Part shown: positions 4,654 through 62,805 of the stretch, one piece after another
Position numbering within the stretch: position 1 is the stretch's first letter
Layout: every line of letters starts with the position of its first letter
Assembly: GCA_034435155.1 (NCBI GenBank)
Contig: DAOTYG010000324.1
Span: 13,622 to 77,621 of the forward strand
Direction of reading: 5' to 3'
Length of the DNA: 64,000 bases
Source of the DNA: Anaerolineae bacterium
GTDB lineage: Bacteria; Chloroflexota; JAHJIN01
Notes under the pieces: model-generated
Seen by the model: the letters and a program-made list of their open reading frames with translations, nothing else
Databases searched by the model: none
Told to the model about the DNA's origin: nothing
Made by a program: the position numbers and the translations under genes

Positions 4654-7600
4654 TTATGGCGTGTAGGACCTCGTGATCAGGGGCAGATAGACACTGAATC
4701 CACCCTGTACTGTCACCACGAAGGGGCCAAAGGTGTTATTCGTATAGCTCCTCTCCGGGATAGTCGGATAGCGATCCGGGTTGACCTGGGCGTAGAGCGT
4801 GTATGTGCCGGTGTTAGTAAAAATATAGGTGAACTGGACGGTCTGGTACGCGCCGGGGGCCAGGCCATATTGCACAGCCGAGCAGCCGACGTTACTGTAT
4901 TCGCCGGCACCGGGGGCATGGGCCGGGTTCACATACAGATCATAGTAGAACGAATAGCAACAGGACGTGGTCACCGGTCCATCGCCCAGGTTGGCCAGGG
5001 TTATGCGAACGGTGGTCGGCTGGTCTTTGGCCGGCTGCGCCGGTACAGTGCTGATCCCGGTCACTGCCAGATCTGGCCGGCGCAGGATATTGGTGTCAGT
5101 GGCAGTATTGTTAGTCTCGTTTTCTGGCTCCGCACAGCCGATAACGACCTGTACGGTCAGGTCCGCCGGCCAGTTCTCTACCAACTGGGCTGGCGCCGGG
5201 TATTCCAGGACCAGAGTCGCCTCGCCGGTGCCACCCACCGGCACCGCTGACACCTCCCGGCGATATTTATGGTTGCCGAGGGCTGTCCAACCGCCGCTTT
5301 TATAGGTGGCGCTGGGATGCAGCGTGGCCGTGATGGCCACCCCGGTGGCGATCTTGTTGCCCTCATTGGCGTACCGGATCGTGTATGTCAGGGTCTGGCA
5401 CAAGGTGGTCGCCGTAACCCCATCGGAAAAATAGATAAAGCGCAGGTCCGGGGCCAGGGTGATCACCTCATTAATGTCCGTGGCGGTGTTGTTGTCCAGG
5501 TTGGTCTCGCCGGTGGCGCGGATGGTCACGGTGTTGGTGATGGGGCCGGGGCTGGCCGTCTCGTTGACCTGCACGGTGATGGTCACGGTGGCGTGCTGGC
5601 CGGCCGGCAGGTCGTTCACGGTGCAGGTGTAGGTCTGGCCGCTCACCAGGTGCCAGCCTGCGCTGCCCTGGAAGGTGGTCTGGGCCGGGATGGTCTCGGT
5701 GAGGACGATGTGCCGGGCCTGGCCGGAGCCGGCGTTGGTGTAGGTGATGGTGTAGGTGAGGATGTCGCCGGCCGAGACGTAGGTCGTGCCGTCGGTCTTG
5801 GTCACTGCCAGGTCTGGGGGCAGGGAGATGATGGGATCCTCGTCCCAGGCGACGTTATCGCCGGGGGCGATGTCCGGCCCGTGGACCTCGTCATAGCTGA
5901 TCTCGACCCGGTTCAGCAGCGTGCCCTCCGCGTCATCGTTGACGCGCAGGGTGAACGTCGTGCTCCCATGACCGCCGTTGCCCGGCAAGATGTCCACTGT
6001 CCGGCTGTAGCGATTGCCGCCCTGGGGTGTCCAGCCGGTACCGATGTACTGGGCCGGCCCGGTAAAGACCTCCGTGAGCACGACGTTGGCGGCGTCTGAG
6101 CGGCCGACGTTGGTGTAAGTGAGCGTATATGTGACGATCTGGCCGGGATGGACCTGATTCAGGCCATTTGACTTGGTTACCTGCAAGTCTACCCAGCAGA
6201 GGAGGGTAGTGTCGTGGGTGGCGTTGTTGTCCTCGCGGGGGTCAGGGCCGTGCGAGCCGTCGTCCCCGATGTAGGCCCAGTTGATCAGCCTATCTGGCGC
6301 GGTAGCAGTGTCGGTGAGGACCCGCACGACAAAGTGAATGGTGTTACTGGCCCCGGGTCCCAGGCTATCAATCGTGGTGGTGTAGGTGCGGCCGTCGGTG
6401 GAGTTGAAAGGCCGGTCGCTGGAGACAAAGATGGTATGAGCGGGGATCACATCGGTGATCACGATGTTCGTCGCTGTCTCATCGCCGCTATTGGCATAAT
6501 AAAGGGTATAGGTGACGAGCTGCCCCAGGGAGACCTCGAGCCGGTCGTCGCTCTTGCTGATACCCAGCTCTGGCGGCGGTGGAGGTGGTGGTCCCCAGGT
6601 GTAATCGAAAACGCCAGAGCCGGCCGTACCGGCGTGCAGCGTCTGCGTCACATAGTCGTCAATGGCCAGGGAATAGACGTACCAGTTCTTCAGTTGGGCG
6701 TTCAATGGATACCACTTGTCTGGGGGAGTGTAACGTTCATCGCCATAGAACAGCACCCCCCCGCCCCCGGTCCCGGCCAGGACGATGGTGGGGGTGATGG
6801 GGTTGACCACCAGGGCATAGACCGGGTTGCCGCCGGCGGACCAGTCTTGCTGCCAGGTATCACTCAAGACTTTGCGGATGTAGATGCCGCCGCCGCTCTC
6901 GCCGACGCCGGCAAAGACCGTGTGCTCGATGTCCACGGCCAGGGCGTTGATGTAGAGAGCCTCGCCGCTCAGGCCGGGGTTGAAGGCCGTCCAGGTCTCG
7001 CCAGCGTCCGTGCTGCGGTAGATGCCATTGTGGTGGGTCCCGGCATAGACGATGGTGGGGGTAAGGGGGTCAATGGCCAGGGCGCGCACGGTATAGTCCG
7101 CGCCGCTGGGCTTGATCCGCTTGTAGACCCAAAGGGCGCCACGGTTGGTGGTCTTGTAGACGCCGCTGCCCGTCCCGGCATAGACGATGGTGGGCGATAC
7201 TGGATCAATGACCAGGGCGTACACATCCAGGGCCTGGGTGGTGGTCAGGCCATTGCTGGCCAGGGTCCAGGTGACGGCATTGGTGGTGGTGTAGATGCCG
7301 TCGTTGGTGCCGGCATAGACCGGGAAGCCGCTGGGGTGGGTAACCGCCAGGGCCCGCACCTCCCGGTCGCCGATGGCCCCGCTGCGGCGTTCCCAGCTTG
7401 CGCCGCCGTCCTGGCTGCGGTATAGGCCGCCGCCCTCGGTGCCGGCATAGACCCGCCAGTCGTAGGCCGGGTTCACGGCGATGGCCCGGACGATGTGGGC
7501 ACTGAGCAGCTTCTCGGGTGGGGTGCCGTTGGCGGTGCTCCAGCTCAGTCCCGCATCCGTAGTGCGGTAGACGCCCCGGCCGGCGGTGCCGGCGTACAGG

Positions 7601-35310: not shown

Positions 35311-35450
35311 GGTCCTCCTGAGGTGAGGTGACGGTCACCTCCCAGGTGACCTCAATAGTTTACCACAAAACGACGATTCATGCAAAAGGAGGCCGATTTC
35401 AGCGGCGTACGCTCTGACGGTGAGGTGACGGTCACCTCCCAGGTGACCGT
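35311..35450. promoter_or_regulatory. Two copies of a palindromic site GAGGTGACGGTCACCTC(CCAGGTGACC) spaced ~107 bp in a divergent intergenic region
   Basis: Near-perfect 17-bp palindromes at 35317-35333 and 35424-35440. Confidence 0.6.
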
Positions 35451-36584: not shown

Positions 36585-39500
36585 ATGCGCTGTCCCCAGT
36601 GCGGTCACGAGAACCTGCACCCCCCGGCCCCCTGCCCGGACTGCGGTTTCACCGGCGACGCAGCCCAATTGGAGGAGCTGGCCCACATCGCCTACCTGCT
36701 GGCCGAATCGGACACGTGGGGGGACCTGCCGCCGGATGCGGTCAGGCGACTGCGCGACCGGTATACGCAGCAGCGCAACGAGCTGGAGGTGGCATTGGGC
36801 CTGCGCCAGCGGCCCCTCACGCCAGACGAGGTCCGCCCGGCCTGGCAGGAGGTCCGCTACCTGGAAGTGCTGCTGGCCCGGCTGCCCTCTTGGACACAGA
36901 AGGGGTGGGTGCGCCCGGAGGTCGCAGACACGCTCATCGCCGGGGCGCAGAAACGCCGCCAGGAACTACAAGCCCGCCTGACCGCAACGCCTCGCGCCCT
37001 GGCGTTGGAGCCGGCCCCCGACGCCGTGGCCCAGCTCCGCTACCTGCGCCGGGCGTTGAAGGACCTGTACGACCGGGGCGATCTGGCCGACGAGGCCGCC
37101 TACGCCGCCGCCGTCGCGGAGTTAGACGCCGAGATCGAGGCAGTGGAAGTGAAGCTGGGCCGGCGACCTGGCCCGGCCCCCAAACCGGCCGCCGTGGAAG
37201 CCGCCCGGCCGGCTCCTGCCCCTGCCCCCCGCAGGCCCCGCCAGCCGATCACCGGGGAGCGCGTCCTGCAAGCCATCCTCTCGGAACGCACTTTGCGGGC
37301 CATGCTGTTCCTGGGCGTGTTCCTGCTCTTCGCCGCCGGGCTGATCCTGGTGGTCTTTAACTGGGACCGTTTCCCGCCACTGGCGCAGTTGCTCTTCCTG
37401 GCCGCCTTCACCTTCTCCTTCTTCGCCCTGGGCTGGTACGTGCGCATGAAGATGCGCCTGCGCAACTCTGGCCTGGCCCTCACGGCCATCGGCGCGCTGC
37501 TCATCCCGCTGGACTTTTATGCGATCTACCTGAGCGGGCATCTGGAATCCTACGTTACGCCGGCGCAGTTCTGGCTCATCGCCTCGGCCTTCTGCCTGCT
37601 GGTCTACACGGCCACGACCTACGCGGTGGAGGCCGAGTTCTTCGGCTACCTGGTGGCGGCGGCGGCCGGAAGCCTGCTCTGCGCGGCGATGCGGGTGGCC
37701 GGTCTCTCGCCAGACTGGTATCCCGGCGCGCTGGGTCTGCTGGCCCTGCTCGTCGCGCCCCTGGCCCAATGGACGAAGAGCGCGGGCCGCTGGCGGGTGT
37801 TCCACCTTCCCCTGTGGTATTCCGCGCTCCTGGCGGTGACAGCTATCTTGCCGGTGGGCCTGGGCCTGTACGCGGTGGGGCTGGCCGGGGGTGACGAGTT
37901 CCGGGCCTCGCTGGCCCTGGCTTGGTGGCTGGGCGGCGCGGTCTACACCCTGGGCGCGCGGCGATTCCGCTCGCGGACGCTGGGTGTGGGCGCAGCCCTC
38001 GCGCTGCCGGCCGCTGTCTACCTGACCCAGTCGCCTCTCTTTGACCGCTGGCAGGTGCCGCTGGCCTGGCACGCCCTGGGCTGGGCGCTCCTGGCCTCGC
38101 TCTACCTGGTCGCCGGCCGGAGGCTGCAATCCCGCAACAGCCGCCACGCGCGCACTCTCCTCGTGGCAAGCCCAACGTTGGCGATGGTATCCGCCCCCTG
38201 GTCGTTTATCAGCTTCACCCGCGCCCTGGACGCGGCGACGGCGACCTATGCCGTGTTGACCCTGGCGGCGATCCTGGCGGCGGCGTTGTGGCAGCGGCCA
38301 CGCGCGCTCCTGGTCGCCAGCTTCTGCGCGCTGGTCTCACTGACGGCCGGCATGTGGGCGCGCGACCTGGCCTTCGCCCACCTCAGCCTGGGCTGGGCGC
38401 TGCTGGCCGTGGCGCATCTGGCGTTGGCGGTGGGTCTCCAGAAGCGGCCGGCCTACGCCGCGCCGGTCTACCTGGCCGGGTTCATCGTCGCCGCGCTGGC
38501 CCTGGTCCCGCCGCTGGTGACGCTGAACCGGGCCGTGCTGATCTACGCCCTGGGCAACTGGATCGCCCTGGCCGGCTGGACGGCCTGGCTGGTCGGGACC
38601 GGTCGGCACGCCGGCCTCAACGCGATCCTGCGGGGCCGCACAGTCAGCCTGCCGCACTGGGCCGCCGCCCTGCCCATCCCGGCCTGGCTCTGGCTGGTCT
38701 GGATGCACAACTGGCCCTACCGGCGGTTCGATCCGGCCTGGCTGGGGATAGGATTCGCGCTGTTGGCGTGGGGTTTGGTTTTCCTGGGTCGCAGGTTGCA
38801 AAGCAAATCGGCAAATGGGCAAATTTGCAAATTCGTTGATTTGCCGATTTGCTGGCCGTGGTACGTGGTTGGCTACATCACCAGCGCGCTGGCGCCCCTC
38901 GCCGGGCTGTGGTATTTCAATGGCGAACGGCTGCTGGTGGCCTCGGTCTTGGCGCTTATCTCCGCGCTCTACTTTGTCTCGGCGTGGATGTTCCGACGGC
39001 GGGTGTGGCTGGCGCCGGCCGGGCTGACGCTGCCGGTGGCCTGGCTGTTTGTCCTGTCCGAACGCGGGATGCCGGTCGCCGTCACCGGCGCGCTGCTGGC
39101 CCTCGCGCCGACGGCCTACCTGCTGGCCGGGTTGCTGCTGGTGCGCGTCCGGCGCGTGGAAAGGGATTTTCTGCTGCCGCTGAACTGCGTGGCCCACGGA
39201 CTGGCCGCGCTGGCCCTGCTGTGGAGCCTGGCCCCGCTGGGGATCAGCCTGCTCCAGCACGGCGAATGGGCCGATACCGACCGCCTCTGGGCTGCCGGGT
39301 GTCAACTGCTCCTGGCGGCGGTCTATGGGCTGGTGGCCTGGGACTTGCGCCGCGAGCGGTGGGGTCACGTGGCGGCCTGGTTGAGCGTGGCGGCCGGCGG
39401 GATCGTCGCCACAGCCTTCAGCGAGGGGCATGGCTCGTCGGCGGCCAAGGCGGCTCTGCTGGCCGTGGCCTACGTGCTGGCGGAGCGTGTGCTGTATGCC

Positions 39501-42326
39501 CTGCGCAATCGGTGGACGCATGGTTCTGCGGCCTGGCCCCTATATCGCCGGCCGCTGCTGGTGGCCGGGTGGGCCGTGTCGGGTGGAGCCATCGGGCTGG
39601 CCCTGTTCCGCAACCTGGTGTTGCTGGGGGCCGGGCGCGAGCAGCAAATCTGGGCCGTTGTCGGGTTGGGGATCATCGTGGGGTTATACGCGCTGGCGGC
39701 CCGGCTGTTCCGCCGCGCCGTCTTCGCCTGGCTGGCGGCCGCGCTCGTGGCGGCCCCGTGGACGATCCTAACCCACCTGGGGTGGTTCGTCTGGCCGGCG
39801 GAGCCGCGCCTGCCGACCTACGCGCTGGCCTGGCTCATCCTGGCCTACCTCTTGCTGGCCGTGGGACTGTGGCTGGAATGGCGCGGCGCGCGCGCCTGCG
39901 GCTTTGCGCCCCGTGTGGTGGCCCACGTCCTCGTCCCGTTCAGCCTCCTCTGGTGCGTGGCCGACGTCCCTATCGCCTACGTCGCCTGGGGGCTGGGCGT
40001 GGCCTTCTATGTGGCCTCGGCCGTGGCGGACCATCTGCGGATGCCCGGCCGGCCGCTGGCCTCGCGCTTTATCTACCCGGCGGCGATGTTGACCCCGGCC
40101 TGGGCGGTCTACCTGCTGGCCCAGTTCGCGCCGACGGCGACGCACCTGAACTACGGCTGGCTGCTGCTGGCCTGTGGGCCGACGGGCCTGGCGGTCGGGA
40201 TTCTCTTGCGCCGCGCGCCTGCTGGCGGGCAGGCCGATGCGCTGCCCCCCTACCTGGCGGCCTATGGCAGCGCGCTGGTGGGGACCATGCTGGTGGCCCA
40301 CGACCGGCCCTGGCTCATCGCCGCGCTCCTGTTCGACGCCGGGCTGTGCGTCTTCTCCGCCTGGCTGCACCGGAAGCCGCTGTGGGGCTACCCGGCGGCG
40401 GCCTTCCCGGTCGGCGCGCTGTGGCTGGCGCTGGCCCACTTCAATATAGCCCCCAATCGCCACGGCTGGGCGCTCATCGCCCTGGGCGCGGCCTACCTGG
40501 TGCTGGCCCACACGCTGCGCTCGTTTGAGTTGCGCCACTACGCCGCGCCGTTGATCGCCGTGGCCTACGTGGCCGTGTCCCTGGGACTGCCGCCCTCCAG
40601 TCGTGACCTGGACGGCGCGCTCGTGGGGTATGCGTTTGCCGCAACGATCTACGCACTCTCGGCGGCCTGGCTGCGGCAGCCGCTGTTGCTGACGCCGGCC
40701 CTGGCGCTCTCGGCGGTCCCCTACGCCGTGGTGTTGTATCGCCTGCCCATCCCGACCGCCGACTATGGCCTGTGGCTCTGGCCGGGCATCGCCGTGGCCC
40801 TGGTCATCGCCCACGTGCTGGATTCCAGCCTGGGTGCGCCGCGCGATTTTCCCTGGTCGCAGCCGGCCCGCTGGCTGCCCACCCTCGCCGAACGCTGGCT
40901 GACCTGGCCGGGCTTGCCGTTCTACGTGGCCGCCTTCCTGGGGGCTATCGTCTCCGTGGGGCTGTCGTGGCGGTGGGGCACGGCCCTGCACGTGTCCGCG
41001 ACCCTGGGGTTGACGGCAGCGGCCTGTGGCCTGGCGGCGTATCGCTTCCGCCTGCGCGTCTGGTTGTTGGCGGCCGGGGCGTCGGCCCAACTGGCCGCGC
41101 TCATGCTGATCTACTACCTCACAGGTGTGTGGCGGCCGGCCGACTATGCGCTGGCCTTCCTGCCGGTCACGGTCGCCACCGCACTCCTGGCGTTGGTCAT
41201 CGAGCGACGGTTGGGCGAGGTATCGCCGCTGGCCGGTTGGCTGAGTCCCCTGGTCGGCTGGTCGCGCCCGCTCTATGCCCTGCTGGTGGTGGACTTGCTC
41301 GTGGGCCAGGTGGCGGCCCTGGGCGATGGCGGGCCGGGCGGCGCGGTCTCGCTGGGCCACGCCCTGCTGCTGGCGGTGTTCGCCTCGGCCTGGGCATTGC
41401 CGGCCCTGGCCTACGCGGCGGCCGGCTGGACGTTGCTGCCGCTGCTCCAGTGGCTGGACCGCTATCAGGTCTCCCAGACCGACCGGCCGGTCTGGCTGGC
41501 GTTCCTGGCCGTCGGCGGGATCGCTGGCTATGGGCTGACCTTCGCGCGCCGGGAGCGAGAAGCCCTGCCCATCTGGCTTGGCGTCTGGGAGAAGCCGCTG
41601 AGCCGGGTTGGGCTGGCCTTCGCGTCGTTGGCGTTGCTCTGGGCCGTGCTGGTTGGCGGATGGGATGTGCTTGGGCTGACGATCCGCGCCCTGTTCGAGC
41701 AGCCGGTGGCGTCGGCCCAGTCGCCGGCCGTGGGGATGACCATCGCCGTGCTGGCCCTGGCCGGGCTGGTCTACCTGGCGGCGGCGCTGGTGGAGCGGTG
41801 GGAGTGGCTGGGTTACGGCGCGGTGGCGCTGCTGTTGGCCGCCTATGGCCTGTGGGCGTTGCTGTTCCTGGGCCAGCGTGAGGCGCAGTGGTACGCGGTG
41901 CCGGCCGGCGTCTACCTGCTGGGCGTGGGCTACGGGGAGTGGCGGGTCGGGCGGCGGGCGTTGGCCCGCTGGGTGGACTGGACCGCGCTGGTCGTGCTGT
42001 TCGGCTCCGTCTTCCTGCAATCGCTGTTCCCGGATCGCTGGCTGTATACGCTGCTGATGGTGGGCGAGGGGCTGGCGGTGCTCGTGTGGGGCAGCGCGCG
42101 GCGGCTGCGGCGGTTCCTGTATGCCGGCGTCGCCGGGGTGGTGCTGGCCGTCGTCGGGCAGATGCTCAGCCAGACCTTGCGGTCGGTCAGCGGGTTGGGC
42201 ACCGCGCTGGTGCTGGGCGTCGTGGGCCTGGCGATCCTGTTGTTCGCGCTCCTGGTGGAGTGGCGGCTGGAGGCGGTGAAGCGGCTGTCGAGGGAACTGC
42301 GGGAGCGGCTGGAGGGGTGGGAGTGA
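36585..42326 (+). CDS. Giant (1913 aa) polytopic integral membrane protein with N-terminal zinc ribbon and ~200-aa cytoplasmic helical region followed by ~45 predicted TM helices
   Basis: ATG with GGAGAGGAG RBS; CPQCGH...CPDCGF zinc ribbon; uninterrupted hydrophobic helix periodicity to the C-terminus; alternative-frame ORFs in this interval are Arg/Pro/Gly-rich GC artefacts. Confidence 0.75.
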   Translation: MRCPQCGHENLHPPAPCPDCGFTGDAAQLEELAHIAYLLAESDTWGDLPPDAVRRLRDRYTQQRNELEVALGLRQRPLTPDEVRPAWQEVRYLEVLLARLPSWTQKGWVRPEVADTLIAGAQKRRQELQARLTATPRALALEPAPDAVAQLRYLRRALKDLYDRGDLADEAAYAAAVAELDAEIEAVEVKLGRRPGPAPKPAAVEAARPAPAPAPRRPRQPITGERVLQAILSERTLRAMLFLGVFLLFAAGLILVVFNWDRFPPLAQLLFLAAFTFSFFALGWYVRMKMRLRNSGLALTAIGALLIPLDFYAIYLSGHLESYVTPAQFWLIASAFCLLVYTATTYAVEAEFFGYLVAAAAGSLLCAAMRVAGLSPDWYPGALGLLALLVAPLAQWTKSAGRWRVFHLPLWYSALLAVTAILPVGLGLYAVGLAGGDEFRASLALAWWLGGAVYTLGARRFRSRTLGVGAALALPAAVYLTQSPLFDRWQVPLAWHALGWALLASLYLVAGRRLQSRNSRHARTLLVASPTLAMVSAPWSFISFTRALDAATATYAVLTLAAILAAALWQRPRALLVASFCALVSLTAGMWARDLAFAHLSLGWALLAVAHLALAVGLQKRPAYAAPVYLAGFIVAALALVPPLVTLNRAVLIYALGNWIALAGWTAWLVGTGRHAGLNAILRGRTVSLPHWAAALPIPAWLWLVWMHNWPYRRFDPAWLGIGFALLAWGLVFLGRRLQSKSANGQICKFVDLPICWPWYVVGYITSALAPLAGLWYFNGERLLVASVLALISALYFVSAWMFRRRVWLAPAGLTLPVAWLFVLSERGMPVAVTGALLALAPTAYLLAGLLLVRVRRVERDFLLPLNCVAHGLAALALLWSLAPLGISLLQHGEWADTDRLWAAGCQLLLAAVYGLVAWDLRRERWGHVAAWLSVAAGGIVATAFSEGHGSSAAKAALLAVAYVLAERVLYALRNRWTHGSAAWPLYRRPLLVAGWAVSGGAIGLALFRNLVLLGAGREQQIWAVVGLGIIVGLYALAARLFRRAVFAWLAAALVAAPWTILTHLGWFVWPAEPRLPTYALAWLILAYLLLAVGLWLEWRGARACGFAPRVVAHVLVPFSLLWCVADVPIAYVAWGLGVAFYVASAVADHLRMPGRPLASRFIYPAAMLTPAWAVYLLAQFAPTATHLNYGWLLLACGPTGLAVGILLRRAPAGGQADALPPYLAAYGSALVGTMLVAHDRPWLIAALLFDAGLCVFSAWLHRKPLWGYPAAAFPVGALWLALAHFNIAPNRHGWALIALGAAYLVLAHTLRSFELRHYAAPLIAVAYVAVSLGLPPSSRDLDGALVGYAFAATIYALSAAWLRQPLLLTPALALSAVPYAVVLYRLPIPTADYGLWLWPGIAVALVIAHVLDSSLGAPRDFPWSQPARWLPTLAERWLTWPGLPFYVAAFLGAIVSVGLSWRWGTALHVSATLGLTAAACGLAAYRFRLRVWLLAAGASAQLAALMLIYYLTGVWRPADYALAFLPVTVATALLALVIERRLGEVSPLAGWLSPLVGWSRPLYALLVVDLLVGQVAALGDGGPGGAVSLGHALLLAVFASAWALPALAYAAAGWTLLPLLQWLDRYQVSQTDRPVWLAFLAVGGIAGYGLTFARREREALPIWLGVWEKPLSRVGLAFASLALLWAVLVGGWDVLGLTIRALFEQPVASAQSPAVGMTIAVLALAGLVYLAAALVERWEWLGYGAVALLLAAYGLWALLFLGQREAQWYAVPAGVYLLGVGYGEWRVGRRALARWVDWTALVVLFGSVFLQSLFPDRWLYTLLMVGEGLAVLVWGSARRLRRFLYAGVAGVVLAVVGQMLSQTLRSVSGLGTALVLGVVGLAILLFALLVEWRLEAVKRLSRELRERLEGWE
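38803..38852. repeat. Palindromic heptamer-family tract GCAAATCGGCAAAT...ATTTGCCGATTTGC inside the giant membrane protein CDS (in frame)
   Basis: AT-richer 50-nt palindrome embedded in a 70% GC CDS; same GATTTGC/GCAAATC heptamer family as the intergenic tracts. Confidence 0.85.
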
Positions 42327-50458: not shown

Positions 50459-50510
50459 TCTCGGGGCGGTCGGCGGTCGTTGGTTGGCGGTCGTTAGTCG
50501 GCGGTCGGGT

Positions 50511-51174: not shown

Positions 51175-51312
51175 TGACATCCATGCACAACTTCTGTCAG
51201 GGAAGGGACAAGGAGGGAGAAAACCCCTACGGGGCATTCTTTCCCTCCCCGAAGGGCCGCGAAATGGGGAGTGGGGCAGTGCTCTCATGCGTTTAATCAC
51301 GCACGGATGTCA
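51175..51312. repeat. MITE-like element (138 bp) with 13-15 bp terminal inverted repeats TGACATCCATGCAC / CACGCACGGATGTCA
   Basis: TIRs read directly; internal core homologous to 30470-30570. Confidence 0.85.
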
Positions 51313-51323
51313 ATGGCTGGCCC

Positions 51324-51365
51324 TTGACAAATGAGTGAATACTCAGTATAATGAGCGAGCACTCA
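51324..51365 (+). promoter_or_regulatory. Consensus sigma-70 promoter TTGACA-17-TATAAT overlapped by palindromes TGAGTgaatACTCA and ATGAGcgagcaCTCAT (putative TetR operators)
   Basis: -35 at 51324-51329, -10 at 51347-51352; palindromes flank and overlap the -10; 25 nt upstream of the GIY-YIG-TetR RBS. Confidence 0.7.
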
Positions 51366-51389
51366 TAAAGGAGACGAGAGGAGCAGCCG

Positions 51390-52259
51390 ATGATCGAACC
51401 GGCGTTGGCGAGCCAGATGGCCTCGTTGCCCGCGCAGCCCGGCGTCTACCTGTTGAAGGACCCGGCCGGCCAGGTGGTCTATGTGGGACACGCGGATAAC
51501 CTGCGCCGGCGCGTGGCCCTTCACCTTTATGGTCTGGACCGAACCGACGACCTGCGCATCGAGTTCCAGGCCACAGCTACCGAGGGCGAGGCTCTGACCC
51601 TGGCCCGAGACCTCATTCGCCAGCACCGGCCCCGGTACAAAGACCTGGGCAAGATGCGGCGTCTGGCCGAGCGTCGTGCCCAGATCATTGAGGCCGCTGC
51701 GCGCGTCTTTGCCCAGAAGGGCTTTCACCAGGCCACCACCAAAGAGATCGCCCAGGAGGCTGGCATTGCCGAGGGCACTATCTATCTCTACTTTGCGAGC
51801 AAGGAAGACTTGCTGGTGGCCGTGCTTACCCAGCCTACCGTCTCGCTATTCCTGGAGATCGCCAGAGATGCGGAGAGCCTGGGCGATGATGATGCGACCA
51901 TCCTGAGTCAGGCCCTGCGGGCGGCCCTGGCGATGGGGCAGCAGTACGCGGATTACCTGCGCCTGTTCCTGGGCGCCATCCAGTCTGTGGATGACGACGT
52001 GCGCCAGCAGGTGTACCTGCGTCTGGAGGAGCAGATCGGGCCGGCCTTCCAGGGTTATGTGCAGCAGCGCATCGCCGCAGGCGCGTTCCGAGACCTGGAT
52101 GCCCGGGTGGTGACAGAAGCGTTGGTGGGTATGTGTCTCATCTTTATCATCACCCAGGAGCTATTGCAGGCCCGGCGTGTGCGTCCCCTGGATTTCGACG
52201 CCGTGGTGCCGGTGCTGGTGGAGCTGTTCTTGCATGGGATGGCGAAACGTGAACCGTGA
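51390..52259 (+). CDS. GIY-YIG (UvrC N-terminal-like) nuclease domain fused to TetR-family transcriptional regulator
   Basis: PGVYLLKDPAGQVVYVGHADNLRRRV ... LIRQHRPRYKD closely parallels the UvrC N-terminus; then TetR HTH RRAQIIEAAARVFAQKGFHQATTKEIAQEAGIAEGTIYLYFASKEDLL and a ligand-binding helical domain. Confidence 0.8.
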   Translation: MIEPALASQMASLPAQPGVYLLKDPAGQVVYVGHADNLRRRVALHLYGLDRTDDLRIEFQATATEGEALTLARDLIRQHRPRYKDLGKMRRLAERRAQIIEAAARVFAQKGFHQATTKEIAQEAGIAEGTIYLYFASKEDLLVAVLTQPTVSLFLEIARDAESLGDDDATILSQALRAALAMGQQYADYLRLFLGAIQSVDDDVRQQVYLRLEEQIGPAFQGYVQQRIAAGAFRDLDARVVTEALVGMCLIFIITQELLQARRVRPLDFDAVVPVLVELFLHGMAKREP

Positions 52260-52280: not shown

Positions 52281-53405
52281 ATGATCATGGAAGAATACGA
52301 CGTGGTCGTGGTGGGGGGTGGGATCGCCGGCTCCGTGGCGGCCCGACTCGCCGCCCGGCAGGGGTTTCGCACCCTGCTCATCGAAAAGAAAAAGACGCCC
52401 CGGAACAAATCCTGCTCCGGCATCCAGTTCCCCTATTTTGAAAAGCTCATCGGGGCCAGGATACCCCCGGACAGGCTCTGCCGGAACGAGCTATATCAGG
52501 TCGAGATCGTCACACCCAGCGGGCGCGCGCTCCATGGCCGGATGAAGATGCTCAACTTTTGGCGTTCCACCCTCGATAGCTGGCTCAACAGCCTGGCTGC
52601 GGAGGCCGGGGCCAACTTTCAAGATCAGACTCGCCTGCTGGACTTTCACCAGGAGGATGCTGGCGTGACTCTGCGTCTCCAGACTGACCAGGAGCGACTG
52701 GTTCGGGCACGCTATCTGATCGCCGCCGATGGCCTGTACTCCCGGATCCGCAAACAACTGCGCCCCGCCGATTTTGGCTCCCGGGCCAGCGGCGGCACGG
52801 TCAACTATTACTGCGTGGGCGAGACCACGCTGAACCCGCACACGCTCTACATGGTCTATAACCGGGACTTTTGCCCGCAGATGTTTGCCTGGGCCTACCT
52901 GAAGGATGACCAATGGGTCATCGGCACGGCGGCGGACCGTTGCCCCCGCGAGTATGCCGACCGCTTTTTCGCCTATATTCAGGCGCGGTATGGGTTTCGG
53001 GGCGAGATCGTGCGCAAGGAAGGGTTCTCGTCGCCCCTTACCGGTGGCGTCTTTTTGGGTTCAGGACGGGTGCTGCTCGTGGGCGACGCGGCCAATCTGG
53101 TAGACGCGCGCCGGGGCCTGGGCATGGACAACGCGGCCCTCAGTGCCCGCCTGGTCGTGCAGGCTCTCGTCGCCGCCGAGGGCGATGGTCGCCCTGCCGC
53201 AGAACAGTATCAGCGTTTGATGCGGGGCCTGGTGCGCAAGCTGGAGGCCAACCGGGATAGACAGGCCCGGCAGTTTGCCTCCAACGACCGGCTGGAAGCT
53301 GGCCTGAACCCCGGCAGCCTGCTCAAGGGCGGAGTGCTGATGAAGCTGGCCGGCTGGGCCAACGCCGTGTTGCCCCCGGAGCGGATCATCACCCTGCCGC
53401 TCTAA
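52281..53405 (+). CDS. FAD-dependent oxidoreductase, geranylgeranyl-reductase-like
   Basis: YDVVVVGGGIAGSVAARLAA dinucleotide-binding motif, GDAAN motif (LLVGDAANLVD). Confidence 0.8.
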   Translation: MIMEEYDVVVVGGGIAGSVAARLAARQGFRTLLIEKKKTPRNKSCSGIQFPYFEKLIGARIPPDRLCRNELYQVEIVTPSGRALHGRMKMLNFWRSTLDSWLNSLAAEAGANFQDQTRLLDFHQEDAGVTLRLQTDQERLVRARYLIAADGLYSRIRKQLRPADFGSRASGGTVNYYCVGETTLNPHTLYMVYNRDFCPQMFAWAYLKDDQWVIGTAADRCPREYADRFFAYIQARYGFRGEIVRKEGFSSPLTGGVFLGSGRVLLVGDAANLVDARRGLGMDNAALSARLVVQALVAAEGDGRPAAEQYQRLMRGLVRKLEANRDRQARQFASNDRLEAGLNPGSLLKGGVLMKLAGWANAVLPPERIITLPL

Positions 53406-53508: not shown

Positions 53509-54465
53509 ATGAGAATCTTGTTGACCGGTGCTTTCGGCAATATTGGCACCAGCACGTTGGGAGAGCTTGTCAGGCATGGGCATCGCGTGCGCTGCTTTGA
53601 TTTGCAGACCCGGCGGAATGAGGAGATGGCGAGCCGCCTGGTCGGTCAGATCGAGACCATGTGGGGCGATCTGCGGCGCCCGGATGACGTGACCGCGGCC
53701 GTGCGCGATCAGGACGCCGTGGTGCATATGGCCTTTGTGCTCCCCCGGCTATCCTCCATCGGCGTGGCCAGTGAGGAACGCCCGGATTGGGCGCGGGAGA
53801 TCAACGTGGGCGGGACCCGGAACCTGTTGGAGGCCATGCGTGCCCTGCCGCAGCCACCCCGGCTCATCTTCATCTCCTCCGTCCACGTCTACGGCCGGAC
53901 CCAGGATCAGCCGCCGCCCCGTACCGTCCATGACCCGCTCCGGCCGGTGGAGCACTATGCCCAGCACAAAGTCGAGTGTGAAGAGCTGGTCAGGGCCTCC
54001 GGCCTGGACTGGATGATCTTGCGGCTGGCAGCAGCGTTGCCGGTGCGCCTGATCCTCGACCCGGGGATGTTCGATGTGCCCCTCAGCAATCGTATCGAGT
54101 ACGTGCACACCCGCGACGTGGGGCTGGCCATCGCCAATGCCCTGGACTGCCCGGCCGCGTGGGGCAAGACCCTGCTCATCGGTGGCGGGCCTCGCTGCCA
54201 GTTCTACTACCGCGATCTGGTGGCACGAGTGCTCTCTGCCACCGGCGTGGGCATGTTGCCGGATCGCGCCTTTGCCACCACCCCCTACGGCGTGGACTGG
54301 CTGGACACCACAGAGAGCCAGCGGTTGCTGCGCTACCAACAGCGTACCCTGGAGGACTATATCCGCGACACCCGGGCGGCATTGGGGTATCGGCTGCACC
54401 TGATCAAGACCTTTCGACCCACGGTGCGTCGTTGGCTCCTCACCAAGTCGCCATATTTTGGATAA
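53509..54465 (+). CDS. NAD-dependent epimerase/dehydratase (extended SDR) family protein
   Basis: ILLTGAFGNIGTS Rossmann motif, YxxxK (YAQHK) active site. Confidence 0.85.
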   Translation: MRILLTGAFGNIGTSTLGELVRHGHRVRCFDLQTRRNEEMASRLVGQIETMWGDLRRPDDVTAAVRDQDAVVHMAFVLPRLSSIGVASEERPDWAREINVGGTRNLLEAMRALPQPPRLIFISSVHVYGRTQDQPPPRTVHDPLRPVEHYAQHKVECEELVRASGLDWMILRLAAALPVRLILDPGMFDVPLSNRIEYVHTRDVGLAIANALDCPAAWGKTLLIGGGPRCQFYYRDLVARVLSATGVGMLPDRAFATTPYGVDWLDTTESQRLLRYQQRTLEDYIRDTRAALGYRLHLIKTFRPTVRRWLLTKSPYFG

Positions 54466-54590
54466 GCAGTGACTGCCTGCCCTCCCGCAGGTTGGGGTAC
54501 AATGGGCCAGACCAGAAGGTATTGCCCCTCTAACCTATTACAAACTCCTTGCAAACCCCCCGCTTTTGGTATAGAATAAGACCGGCTATT

Positions 54591-54766
54591 GCGGAATGGG
54601 GAATGCGGAATGCGGAGTGCGGAATGGGGAATGGAGAATGCGGATTTCGGAATCTGATTACGCAGTCTGCCATTTGCCATTTGCCATGTGCCATTTGCAA
54701 TTTGCAATCTGCAATTTGCAATCTGCAATCTGCAATCCACAATCCGCAATCTGCCATCCGCAATCC
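54591..54766. repeat. Heptanucleotide repeats (GGAATGS)x~9 then (TGCCATT/TGCAATC)x14 upstream of pdxS
   Basis: Two adjacent 7-bp-period tracts. Confidence 0.95.
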
Positions 54767-62465: not shown

Positions 62466-62805
62466 CCCGCAAGTCAAAGATTCCTGCTCGCGCGGGGTCT
62501 GCGACCCCGCGCCGGCGGCTATCTTGTGCTCGCGCAGGGTGTGCCACCCCGCGCTGGTGGGCGGCGGGTCACCCAGTCAGGCCTGGGCCTGGCAGACCCG
62601 CCGCGAGCGAGGGTCTTATGCTCGCGCGGGGTCTGCGACCCCGCGCTGGTGAGTGGCGGGTCACCCAGTCAGGCCTGGGCCTGGCAGACCCGCCGCGAGC
62701 GAGGGGCACACCCTCTTATGCTCGCGCGGGGTCTGCGACCCCGCGCTGGTGAGTGGCGGGTCACCCAGTCAGGCCTGGGCCTGGCAGACCCGCCGCGAGC
62801 AGTGG
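62466..62805. repeat. Tandem array (3.5 copies, ~95-bp composite unit) of the same GCGCGGGGTCTGCGACCCCGCGC hairpin plus a second GGCGGGTCACCCAGTCAGGCCTGGGCCTGGCAGACCCGCC hairpin
   Basis: Near-identical 95-bp units between darA and the CBS gene. Confidence 0.9.

Follow-up and report, generated by a model that had tools for sequence, protein, structure and literature searches.

One gene in a 64,000-nucleotide stretch of DNA from an Anaerolineae bacterium (contig DAOTYG010000324.1, positions 13,622 to 77,621; hereafter the window) encodes a protein that joins an N-terminal GIY-YIG domain, of the type found in the repair nuclease UvrC, to a complete TetR regulator. We propose, with a probability of roughly 60%, that this protein is an autoregulated, FadR-like TetR repressor whose UvrC-derived domain is catalytically degenerate in the lineage of the window. 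To our knowledge, few bacterial transcription factors are as uniform as the TetR regulators, which have one helix-turn-helix (HTH) and one ligand domain and are rarely fused to unrelated domains. In the present protein, a module of a DNA-repair nuclease appears grafted onto helix 1 of a FadR-like repressor and kept under selection in a narrow lineage, probably within Chloroflexota. If so, it would be a compact natural case of a repressor that has put a nuclease domain to non-catalytic use.

Architecture, conservation and probable origin of the fusion protein

Pfam profiles identified both modules of the protein. TetR_N (PF00440) matched residues 99–145 with 71.4 bits (cutoff 24), a match found in 12 of the 12 members of the fusion family; GIY-YIG (PF01541) matched residues 17–80 with 25.0 bits (cutoff 22.6); and TetR_C_24 matched residues 172–249 with 26.6 bits (cutoff 26.4). 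The GIY-YIG-like family DUF7508 gave a sub-threshold match. The NCBIfam UvrC and Cho-like models matched residues 7–86 with E values of 1e-9 to 1e-16, at scores far under the model cutoffs, and a search of PDB sequences with the N-terminal 98 residues retrieved crystallised N-domains of UvrC, that of Bacillus caldotenax (1yd6, E 1.4e-12) and 1ycz (E 5e-5).

The AlphaFold model of the whole protein (predicted local distance difference test score, pLDDT, 81) presents the GIY-YIG order of elements, with beta strands at residues 18–23 and 29–33, a helix at 35–46, a strand at 56–61 and a helix at 65–79. Residues 83–284 are all helical, and a single long helix (residues 83–110) carries the linker straight into TetR helix 1. 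In Foldseek searches, the nine best PDB matches of the model of residues 1–90 were the UvrC domains 1yd6 and 1ycz (TM-score 0.6–0.69). The best matches of the full model were 3whb, 5gp9, 6o6o and 6en8, which are the FadR proteins of B. subtilis and B. halodurans, FasR of Mycobacterium tuberculosis and FadR of Sulfolobus acidocaldarius; more than 500 TetR structures matched it at E<=1e-3. The first-pass annotation of this DNA had proposed a UvrC-like GIY-YIG domain fused to a complete TetR regulator, to be checked with PF01541 and PF00440. Both profiles score above their cutoffs, and the agreement of Pfam, NCBIfam, PDB sequence matches and predicted structure leaves no reason to regard the domain match as spurious.

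Identical or near-identical fusion proteins were found on at least ten independent contigs (JGI, ENA, NCBI and Logan). Because of these many contigs, and of the conserved start codon, ribosome-binding site (RBS) and promoter, the fusion is no artefact; the two-domain architecture is real and is translated from a conserved start. This start lies at 51390, and not at 51324 as first annotated, a position that belongs to the −35 box.

The top NCBIfam match of the TetR part was Bacillus FadR (NF053878), with 70.8 bits against a cutoff of 200. Judged by sequence and fold, this part is FadR-like without being a FadR orthologue, and is nearest in kind to the acyl-CoA-sensing FadR and FasR regulators. 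Bacillus FadR (YsiA) and its relatives are the best matches in both structure and NCBIfam profile, but share only ~23% identity with the fusion protein. They also differ from it in that no characterised FadR carries an 86-residue GIY-YIG domain, and in their gene neighbourhood, since the fusion gene is followed by genes for a flavoprotein of the geranylgeranyl-reductase (GGR) family and a short-chain dehydrogenase/reductase (SDR), or in relatives by ABC-2 transporter genes, and not by beta-oxidation genes.

The N-domain is 35–47% identical to bona fide UvrC N-termini, shares their beta-beta-alpha-(alpha)-beta-alpha fold and keeps the GVY and YVG motifs and the Arg of the arginine helix. On the other hand, UvrC has ~600 amino acids (aa), whereas the fusion protein has 289 and lacks the Cys-rich, UvrB-binding (UVR), RNase-H-like and (HhH)2 domains, with TetR beginning after residue 90. 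Arabidopsis GRXS16 (PDB 2lwf), a marginal match of the N-domain in sequence and in fold (E 0.25 in both searches), offers a precedent, since there too a UvrC-like GIY-YIG domain was recruited to the N-terminus of a protein that mainly does something else. GRXS16 is eukaryotic and plastid-located, has a redox (glutaredoxin) partner domain and is not a transcription factor.

Ratios of nonsynonymous to synonymous substitution rates (dN/dS) were obtained by the Nei-Gojobori method for three pairs of loci, with residues 1–86 taken as the N-domain. For the GIY-YIG domain they were 0.15 (window and L001), 0.31 (window and L006) and 0.20 (L001 and L006); for the TetR part they were 0.09–0.23, and for the HTH 0.03–0.11. 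In addition, 17 positions of the N-domain, among them both Tyr and the hydrophobic core, show no variation in 10 sequences, with members as little as 35–42% identical overall, and the N-domain is kept in all full-length members of the three clusters formed at 50% identity. On these comparisons the GIY-YIG domain is under purifying selection and is not decaying.

The fusion is as unusual as the first-pass annotation supposed. A profile of the family, run with HMMER on 1.84 billion representatives (50% identity clusters of ~15 billion proteins), found three full-length fusion clusters (P0008, P0117 and P0118), all other top matches being plain or tandem TetR proteins. In a 90% identity database there were about ten fusion clusters, most with 1–3 members. 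No description of a GIY-YIG/TetR fusion or of DUF7508 was found in the open-access literature. Among the matches listed, the nearest plain TetR proteins had ~40% identity and came from metagenome-assembled genomes (MAGs) of Anaerolineae, Ardenticatenales and Caldilineaceae. A scan of genome contigs with the fusion alignment gave no fusions among the matches listed, only plain TetR proteins of 24–40% identity, mostly from Chloroflexota MAGs; these matches lack even the lineage of the window itself and are no ground for claiming that the fusion is absent from genomes.

When metagenome contigs were scanned with the N-domain, its nearest relatives among the matches listed were 36–47% identical, and none of the 80 was fused to TetR. 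Most of them sit in open reading frames (ORFs) of UvrC length (~600–650 aa), which points to a 5′ fragment of uvrC as the source of the N-domain. No separate GIY-YIG ORF was found within 6 kb on either side of 80 plain TetR relatives, and thus there was no trace there of an unfused gene pair.

Three groups of candidates were set aside in these searches. P0009, a possible close relative devoid of the N-domain, is cut by a contig end; P0152, P0178, P0185, P0186 and P0210 (~270 aa, with two matched stretches) are tandem TetR_N proteins and not GIY-YIG fusions; and a plain TetR gene ahead of a flavoprotein orthologue of 77% identity (L173) belongs to another TetR subfamily, so it is not an unfused orthologue.

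The promoter and its phased palindromes

A consensus TTGACA-17-TATAAT promoter overlapped by two palindromes had been reported for this gene, with autoregulation as the suggested consequence. The promoter indeed agrees with the consensus at every position and both palindromes are present, here named O1 and O2 as putative operators (Table 1). They form a direct repeat AATGAG-N6-ACTCA whose starts are 20 bp apart (51330 and 51350), each with a TGAG-N6-CTCA palindrome, and O2 begins within the −10 box, at its final base, and runs across the transcription start predicted near 51359. In the 64-kb window the motif TGAG-N6-CTCA occurs three times, against 0.54 expected, and two of the three copies are in the promoter of the fusion gene.

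The arrangement is conserved in six lineages (L002, L001, L176, L006, L175 and L090), in which orthologues are preceded by TTGACA-17-(T/G)ATAAT and keep the position of O2; a ATGATCGAACC start is common to all aligned loci. Promoter and sites are present in L002 and L176 (98% and 90% protein identity). In L001 (88%) the promoter and operators are kept, and ~170 bp are inserted between the operators and the RBS. In L006 (76%), O1 reads CGAGTgcaaACTCG, a compensatory change of T..A to C..G at both ends, and a third site lies 20 bp further on. L175 (67%) has three sites, spaced 20 and 19 bp apart, and L090 (35%, a low-GC locus) has TGAGCgattGCTCA directly after the −10 box. Across the family there are two to three operator-like sites, phased by 19–21 bp.

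Compared by eye with GATGAATGAATACTCATTCAT, the crystallised operator of B. halodurans FadR, O1 agrees at 15 of 21 positions and has an identical 10-bp core, TGAATACTCA. The B. halodurans regulator binds as a dimer of dimers to two overlapping inverted repeats (PMC5397183), a mode that the adjacent, phased inverted repeats of the fusion gene would fit; as in FadR, they are located in the regulator's own promoter. Because the operator layout is conserved and resembles the operator and binding mode of FadR, repression by the fusion protein of its own promoter, through occlusion of RNA polymerase, is a well-supported inference, and the early suggestion of autoregulation holds at the level of sequence.

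In the mechanism that we propose, the phased operators would be occupied by dimers lined up along one face of the DNA, like the FadR dimer of dimers, and the bound dimers would occlude RNA polymerase at the promoter of the fusion gene. The repressor would be released once its C-terminal pocket takes up a hydrophobic ligand (acyl-CoA, fatty-acid or isoprenoid-like), and this release would derepress the regulator gene together with the co-transcribed genes for the GGR-family flavoprotein and the SDR.

Table 1. Positions in the window of the fusion gene, its control region and the two genes downstream
Feature	Position	Strand	Basis or remark
Sigma-70-type promoter: −35 TTGACA (51324–51329), 17-nt spacer, −10 TATAAT (51347–51352)	51324–51352	+	12/12 consensus
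Putative operator O1, AATGAGTGAATACTCAG; core palindrome TGAGTgaatACTCA at 51332–51345, within the promoter spacer	51330–51346
Putative operator O2, AATGAGCGAGCACTCAT (palindrome ATGAGcgagcaCTCAT); core TGAG-N6-CTCA at 51352–51365	51350–51366
Ribosome-binding region (AAAGGAGA ... AGGAG), 5–6 nt ahead of the ATG	51368–51384	+	Read from the sequence
GIY-YIG-TetR fusion coding sequence	51390–52259	+	289 aa; identical protein on 6 independent metagenome/NCBI contigs
UvrC-type GIY-YIG domain (residues 1–86)	51390–51647	+	Pfam PF01541, 1yd6, Foldseek, dN/dS
Basic linker (KDLGKMRRLAERR), then TetR HTH domain (residues ~95–145)	51648–51824	+	PF00440, AlphaFold
All-helical TetR ligand-binding/dimerisation domain, FadR-like	51825–52256	+	TetR_C_24, NCBIfam, Foldseek
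Flavoprotein of the geranylgeranyl-reductase family with flavin adenine dinucleotide (FAD); probably co-transcribed, 21-bp gap	52281–53405	+	TIGR02032, FAD_binding_3
Extended SDR (NAD-dependent epimerase/dehydratase or 3-beta-hydroxysteroid dehydrogenase type), probably the last gene of the operon	53509–54465	+	PF01370

Two further features of the control regions were observed. An inverted repeat, TGTCAAtggc / gcccTTGACA, lies over the −35 box (51308–51329 of the window); L175 shares this GATGTCAATG...CCCTTGACA arrangement, and the repeat could be a divergent −35 box of the upstream zinc-ribbon gene or another binding site. The ~170-bp insert of L001 (positions 5800–5975), between promoter/operators and RBS, is rich in inverted repeats (e.g. 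CCCCAGAATTGGGG) and may be a small mobile or repetitive extragenic palindromic (REP)-like element that provides a long 5′ leader.

Active site and proposed role of the GIY-YIG domain

The catalytic positions were read from an alignment to the UvrC proteins of Thermotoga maritima (TmUvrC) and B. caldotenax, which is gap-free and of high confidence over the last helix. TmUvrC Y19 corresponds to Y20 of the fusion protein (GVY20); Y29 to Y31 (VY31VG); K32 to H34; R39 to R41; Y43 to H45; E76 (E74 of the 1yd6 chain) to Ala72, codon 51603–51605 (EALTLARDLI against EAFILEANLI); and N88 to Lys84. A change of Y43 to His falls within the normal variation of UvrC (PMC10085695). GIY-YIG nucleases use one catalytic metal ion, which is anchored by the Glu, and their Arg does not vary (PMC3045582); in TmUvrC the residue that binds the catalytic metal is E76 (PMC10085695). 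The first-pass annotation had taken the catalytic Tyr, Arg and Glu as all present. Both Tyr and the Arg are, but the Glu of the glutamate helix is absent from the window protein, where Ala72 stands in a gap-free aligned stretch, and the Asn of the UvrC lineage is replaced by Lys84. The GIY-YIG domain of the window protein thus probably no longer cuts DNA.

The same positions (Tyr, Tyr, Arg, Glu, Asn) separate four subclades of the family. The window protein and P0001–P0004 (five sequences) have Tyr, Tyr, Arg, Ala, Lys; P0005–P0008 (66–80% identical) have Tyr, Tyr, Arg, Glu, Lys/Asp; P0010 and P0117 have Tyr, Tyr, Gln/His, Glu, Asn; and P0118 has Tyr, Tyr, Ala, Ala, Asn. Both tyrosines (Y20 and Y31) are unchanged throughout the family. 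The window protein keeps the arginine-helix Arg as R41, and the clades of P0010, P0117 and P0118 have lost it; overall, P0005–P0008 are the only subclade with a complete Tyr-Tyr-Arg-Glu set, the other three having lost Arg and/or Glu. The window and P0001 proteins also have a deletion of five residues between the arginine helix and strand 3, a further difference from UvrC. This distribution is most simply explained if the ancestor was active and three of the four subclades later lost Arg and/or Glu, probably independently of one another. Since these residues were lost while purifying selection persisted, the function under selection in most lineages would not be catalysis. Orthologues with Glu and with Ala share the same operators, and they offer a natural comparison of what a GIY-YIG fold does after it loses cutting.

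In the repressor proposed here, the GIY-YIG domain would be mounted on a long basic helix that runs on into TetR helix 1, which would place it beside the DNA that flanks each half-site, and it would act there non-catalytically and not as a nuclease. Its role may be an extra non-specific contact with DNA or a bridge between neighbouring dimers, a guess to which we would give about one chance in three. Several points weigh against this interpretation as a whole. A bridge between dimers is speculative, given that the UvrC N-domain on its own is a monomer (PMC10085695). The score of the TetR part is far under the NCBIfam FadR cutoff (70.8 against 200) and no beta-oxidation genes are adjacent to the fusion gene, which together make the class of ligand uncertain. 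The geometry between the domains comes from an AlphaFold monomer model built on a shallow alignment (pLDDT 81). Finally, P0005–P0008 keep Tyr-Tyr-Arg-Glu, and catalysis may be ancestral and still in use there.

The repeated loss of catalytic residues, the five-residue deletion and the marginal Pfam score of the N-domain (25.0 against 22.6) would also be expected of a 5′ fragment of uvrC fused by accident to a tetR gene, with the N-domain a functionless, decaying passenger. We regard such a neutral remnant as unlikely, since the dN/dS of the N-domain (0.15–0.31) is similar to that of the ligand-binding domain; 17 positions stay invariant at 35–42% overall identity; all full-length members of the three clusters retain the domain; and the model of a folded GIY-YIG domain is confident.

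The first-pass annotation suggested that the protein might be a site-specific nicking repressor or a damage-coupled regulator. In such a reading, the TetR part would dock on the palindromes and the GIY-YIG domain would cut one strand nearby or act on damaged DNA. This idea rested on an intact active site and, with Ala72 in place of the sole metal-anchoring Glu and Lys84 in place of Asn, fails for the window protein by the alignment test which that annotation itself proposed. Both Tyr and the Arg are nonetheless present, P0005–P0008 keep all four residues, and one locus (L001) has an Fpg/Nei glycosylase gene directly upstream. In addition, the order of GIY-YIG domain, linker and sequence-specific DNA-binding domain is that of the GIY-YIG homing endonucleases (PMC3664794).

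Those enzymes (I-TevI and I-BmoI) have a C-terminal site-specific DNA-binding domain as well; homing endonucleases of this class are active nucleases with a NUMOD or HTH tail that binds DNA, and their genes lie in introns, inteins or free-standing mobile contexts. I-TevI is a weak fold match of the N-domain (1ln0, E ~1.3, Foldseek). They differ in that the DNA-binding module of the fusion protein is a dimeric, ligand-controlled TetR, its active site is incomplete, and its gene stands in a conserved chromosomal operon without intron, intein or mobile context and with its target sites in its own promoter. The only operators of the window being in the promoter of the gene itself, nicks would damage the cell's own chromosome. 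Moreover, selection persists in the three subclades that lost Arg and/or Glu, so the selected function is not catalysis there; no mobile-element, intron or defence context was found around the fusion gene; and the Fpg neighbour is limited to one lineage. For these reasons, nicking or damage coupling is quite improbable in the window protein.

There is a similarly slim chance that P0005–P0008, with the full Tyr-Tyr-Arg-Glu set, and conceivably the window protein by a variant mechanism, are natural ligand-gated, operator-guided nickases. If the Glu-containing orthologues did nick, they would form a natural ligand-controlled, sequence-targeted nickase and a native counterpart of the engineered Tev-fusion nucleases. 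Their TetR domain would bring a UvrC-type nuclease to defined sites on the chromosome, and a small-molecule signal would thereby be coupled to a programmed nick in promoter DNA. In a milder version, the dead domain may work as a pseudo-nuclease "reader", tuning repression in response to distorted or damaged DNA beside the operator.

That the true start is Met88 (MRRLAERR...), with the upstream 87 codons untranslated or derived from a chimeric contig, is hardly credible: the database entry that begins at the equivalent Met (P0009, 197 aa) is cut by a contig end, its gene starting at base 17 of its contig, whereas a consensus promoter and an RBS stand directly ahead of the ATG at 51390, six lineages that come from different samples and assemblers share the long ORF, its start codon and the promoter, and the N-domain is under purifying selection at the codon level.

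Downstream genes and other features of the window

The two genes downstream of the fusion gene had been named as a geranylgeranyl-reductase-like FAD gene and an SDR gene and as likely targets. Their identities stand: the flavoprotein scores 150 bits with TIGR02032 (GG-red-SF, cutoff 158.8) and also matches FAD_binding_3, and the SDR scores 87.7 bits with PF01370. Given the 21-bp gap and the lack of any other operator in the window, both are plausible co-transcribed targets of the regulator. As partners they are not conserved across the family, other members of which precede ABC-2 permease or adaptor genes. The trio of fusion gene, flavoprotein and SDR is common to the window, L001, L002–L005 and L176; L006–L008 lack the flavoprotein and have the SDR alone, followed by a membrane-fusion-like gene; and L009 and L090 have ABC-2 permease genes. 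The neighbours are thus lipid or transport genes, of the sort that TetR/FadR-type regulators typically control, and present no DNA-repair theme.

A flavoprotein orthologue of 77% identity in another Chloroflexi MAG sits behind an unrelated plain TetR gene, and therefore the GIY-YIG domain is not needed to regulate the flavoprotein gene. The closest named relative of the flavoprotein also comes from a Chloroflexi MAG. This protein is 58–63% identical to proteins from MAGs of Bathyarchaeia, Brockarchaeota, Methanomethyliales and Crenarchaeota, an unusually high value across domains, which hints at archaeal-bacterial transfer of a lipid-saturating enzyme.

The Fpg/Nei DNA glycosylase gene of L001 occupies positions 4783–5697 of that locus; neither the window nor the other loci have such a gene ahead of the fusion gene. 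No RNA family of Rfam was found anywhere in the 64-kb window.

Some repeats and one large ORF were also observed in the window. The spacer between the SDR gene and pdxS (54590–54765) holds adjacent heptanucleotide arrays, (TGCGGAA) x ~9 and (GCAATCT) x ~15; in near-identical contigs this spacer measures ~300 bp (L002) and ~328 bp (L005), which suggests variation in repeat number. Between the convergent ThiF-like and zinc-ribbon genes lies a tandem repeat of period 14 (50468–50507, GGTCGGCGGTCGTT x 2.9), also scored as a long hairpin in the terminator scan. An ORF of 1913 aa at 36585–42326 has no Pfam match at E<=1e-5. Identical 14-mer pairs (TGAGGTGACGGTCA; TGAGTGGCGGGTCA), 97–100 bp apart, at 35324–35434 and 62650–62763 indicate tandem duplications of ~100 bp.

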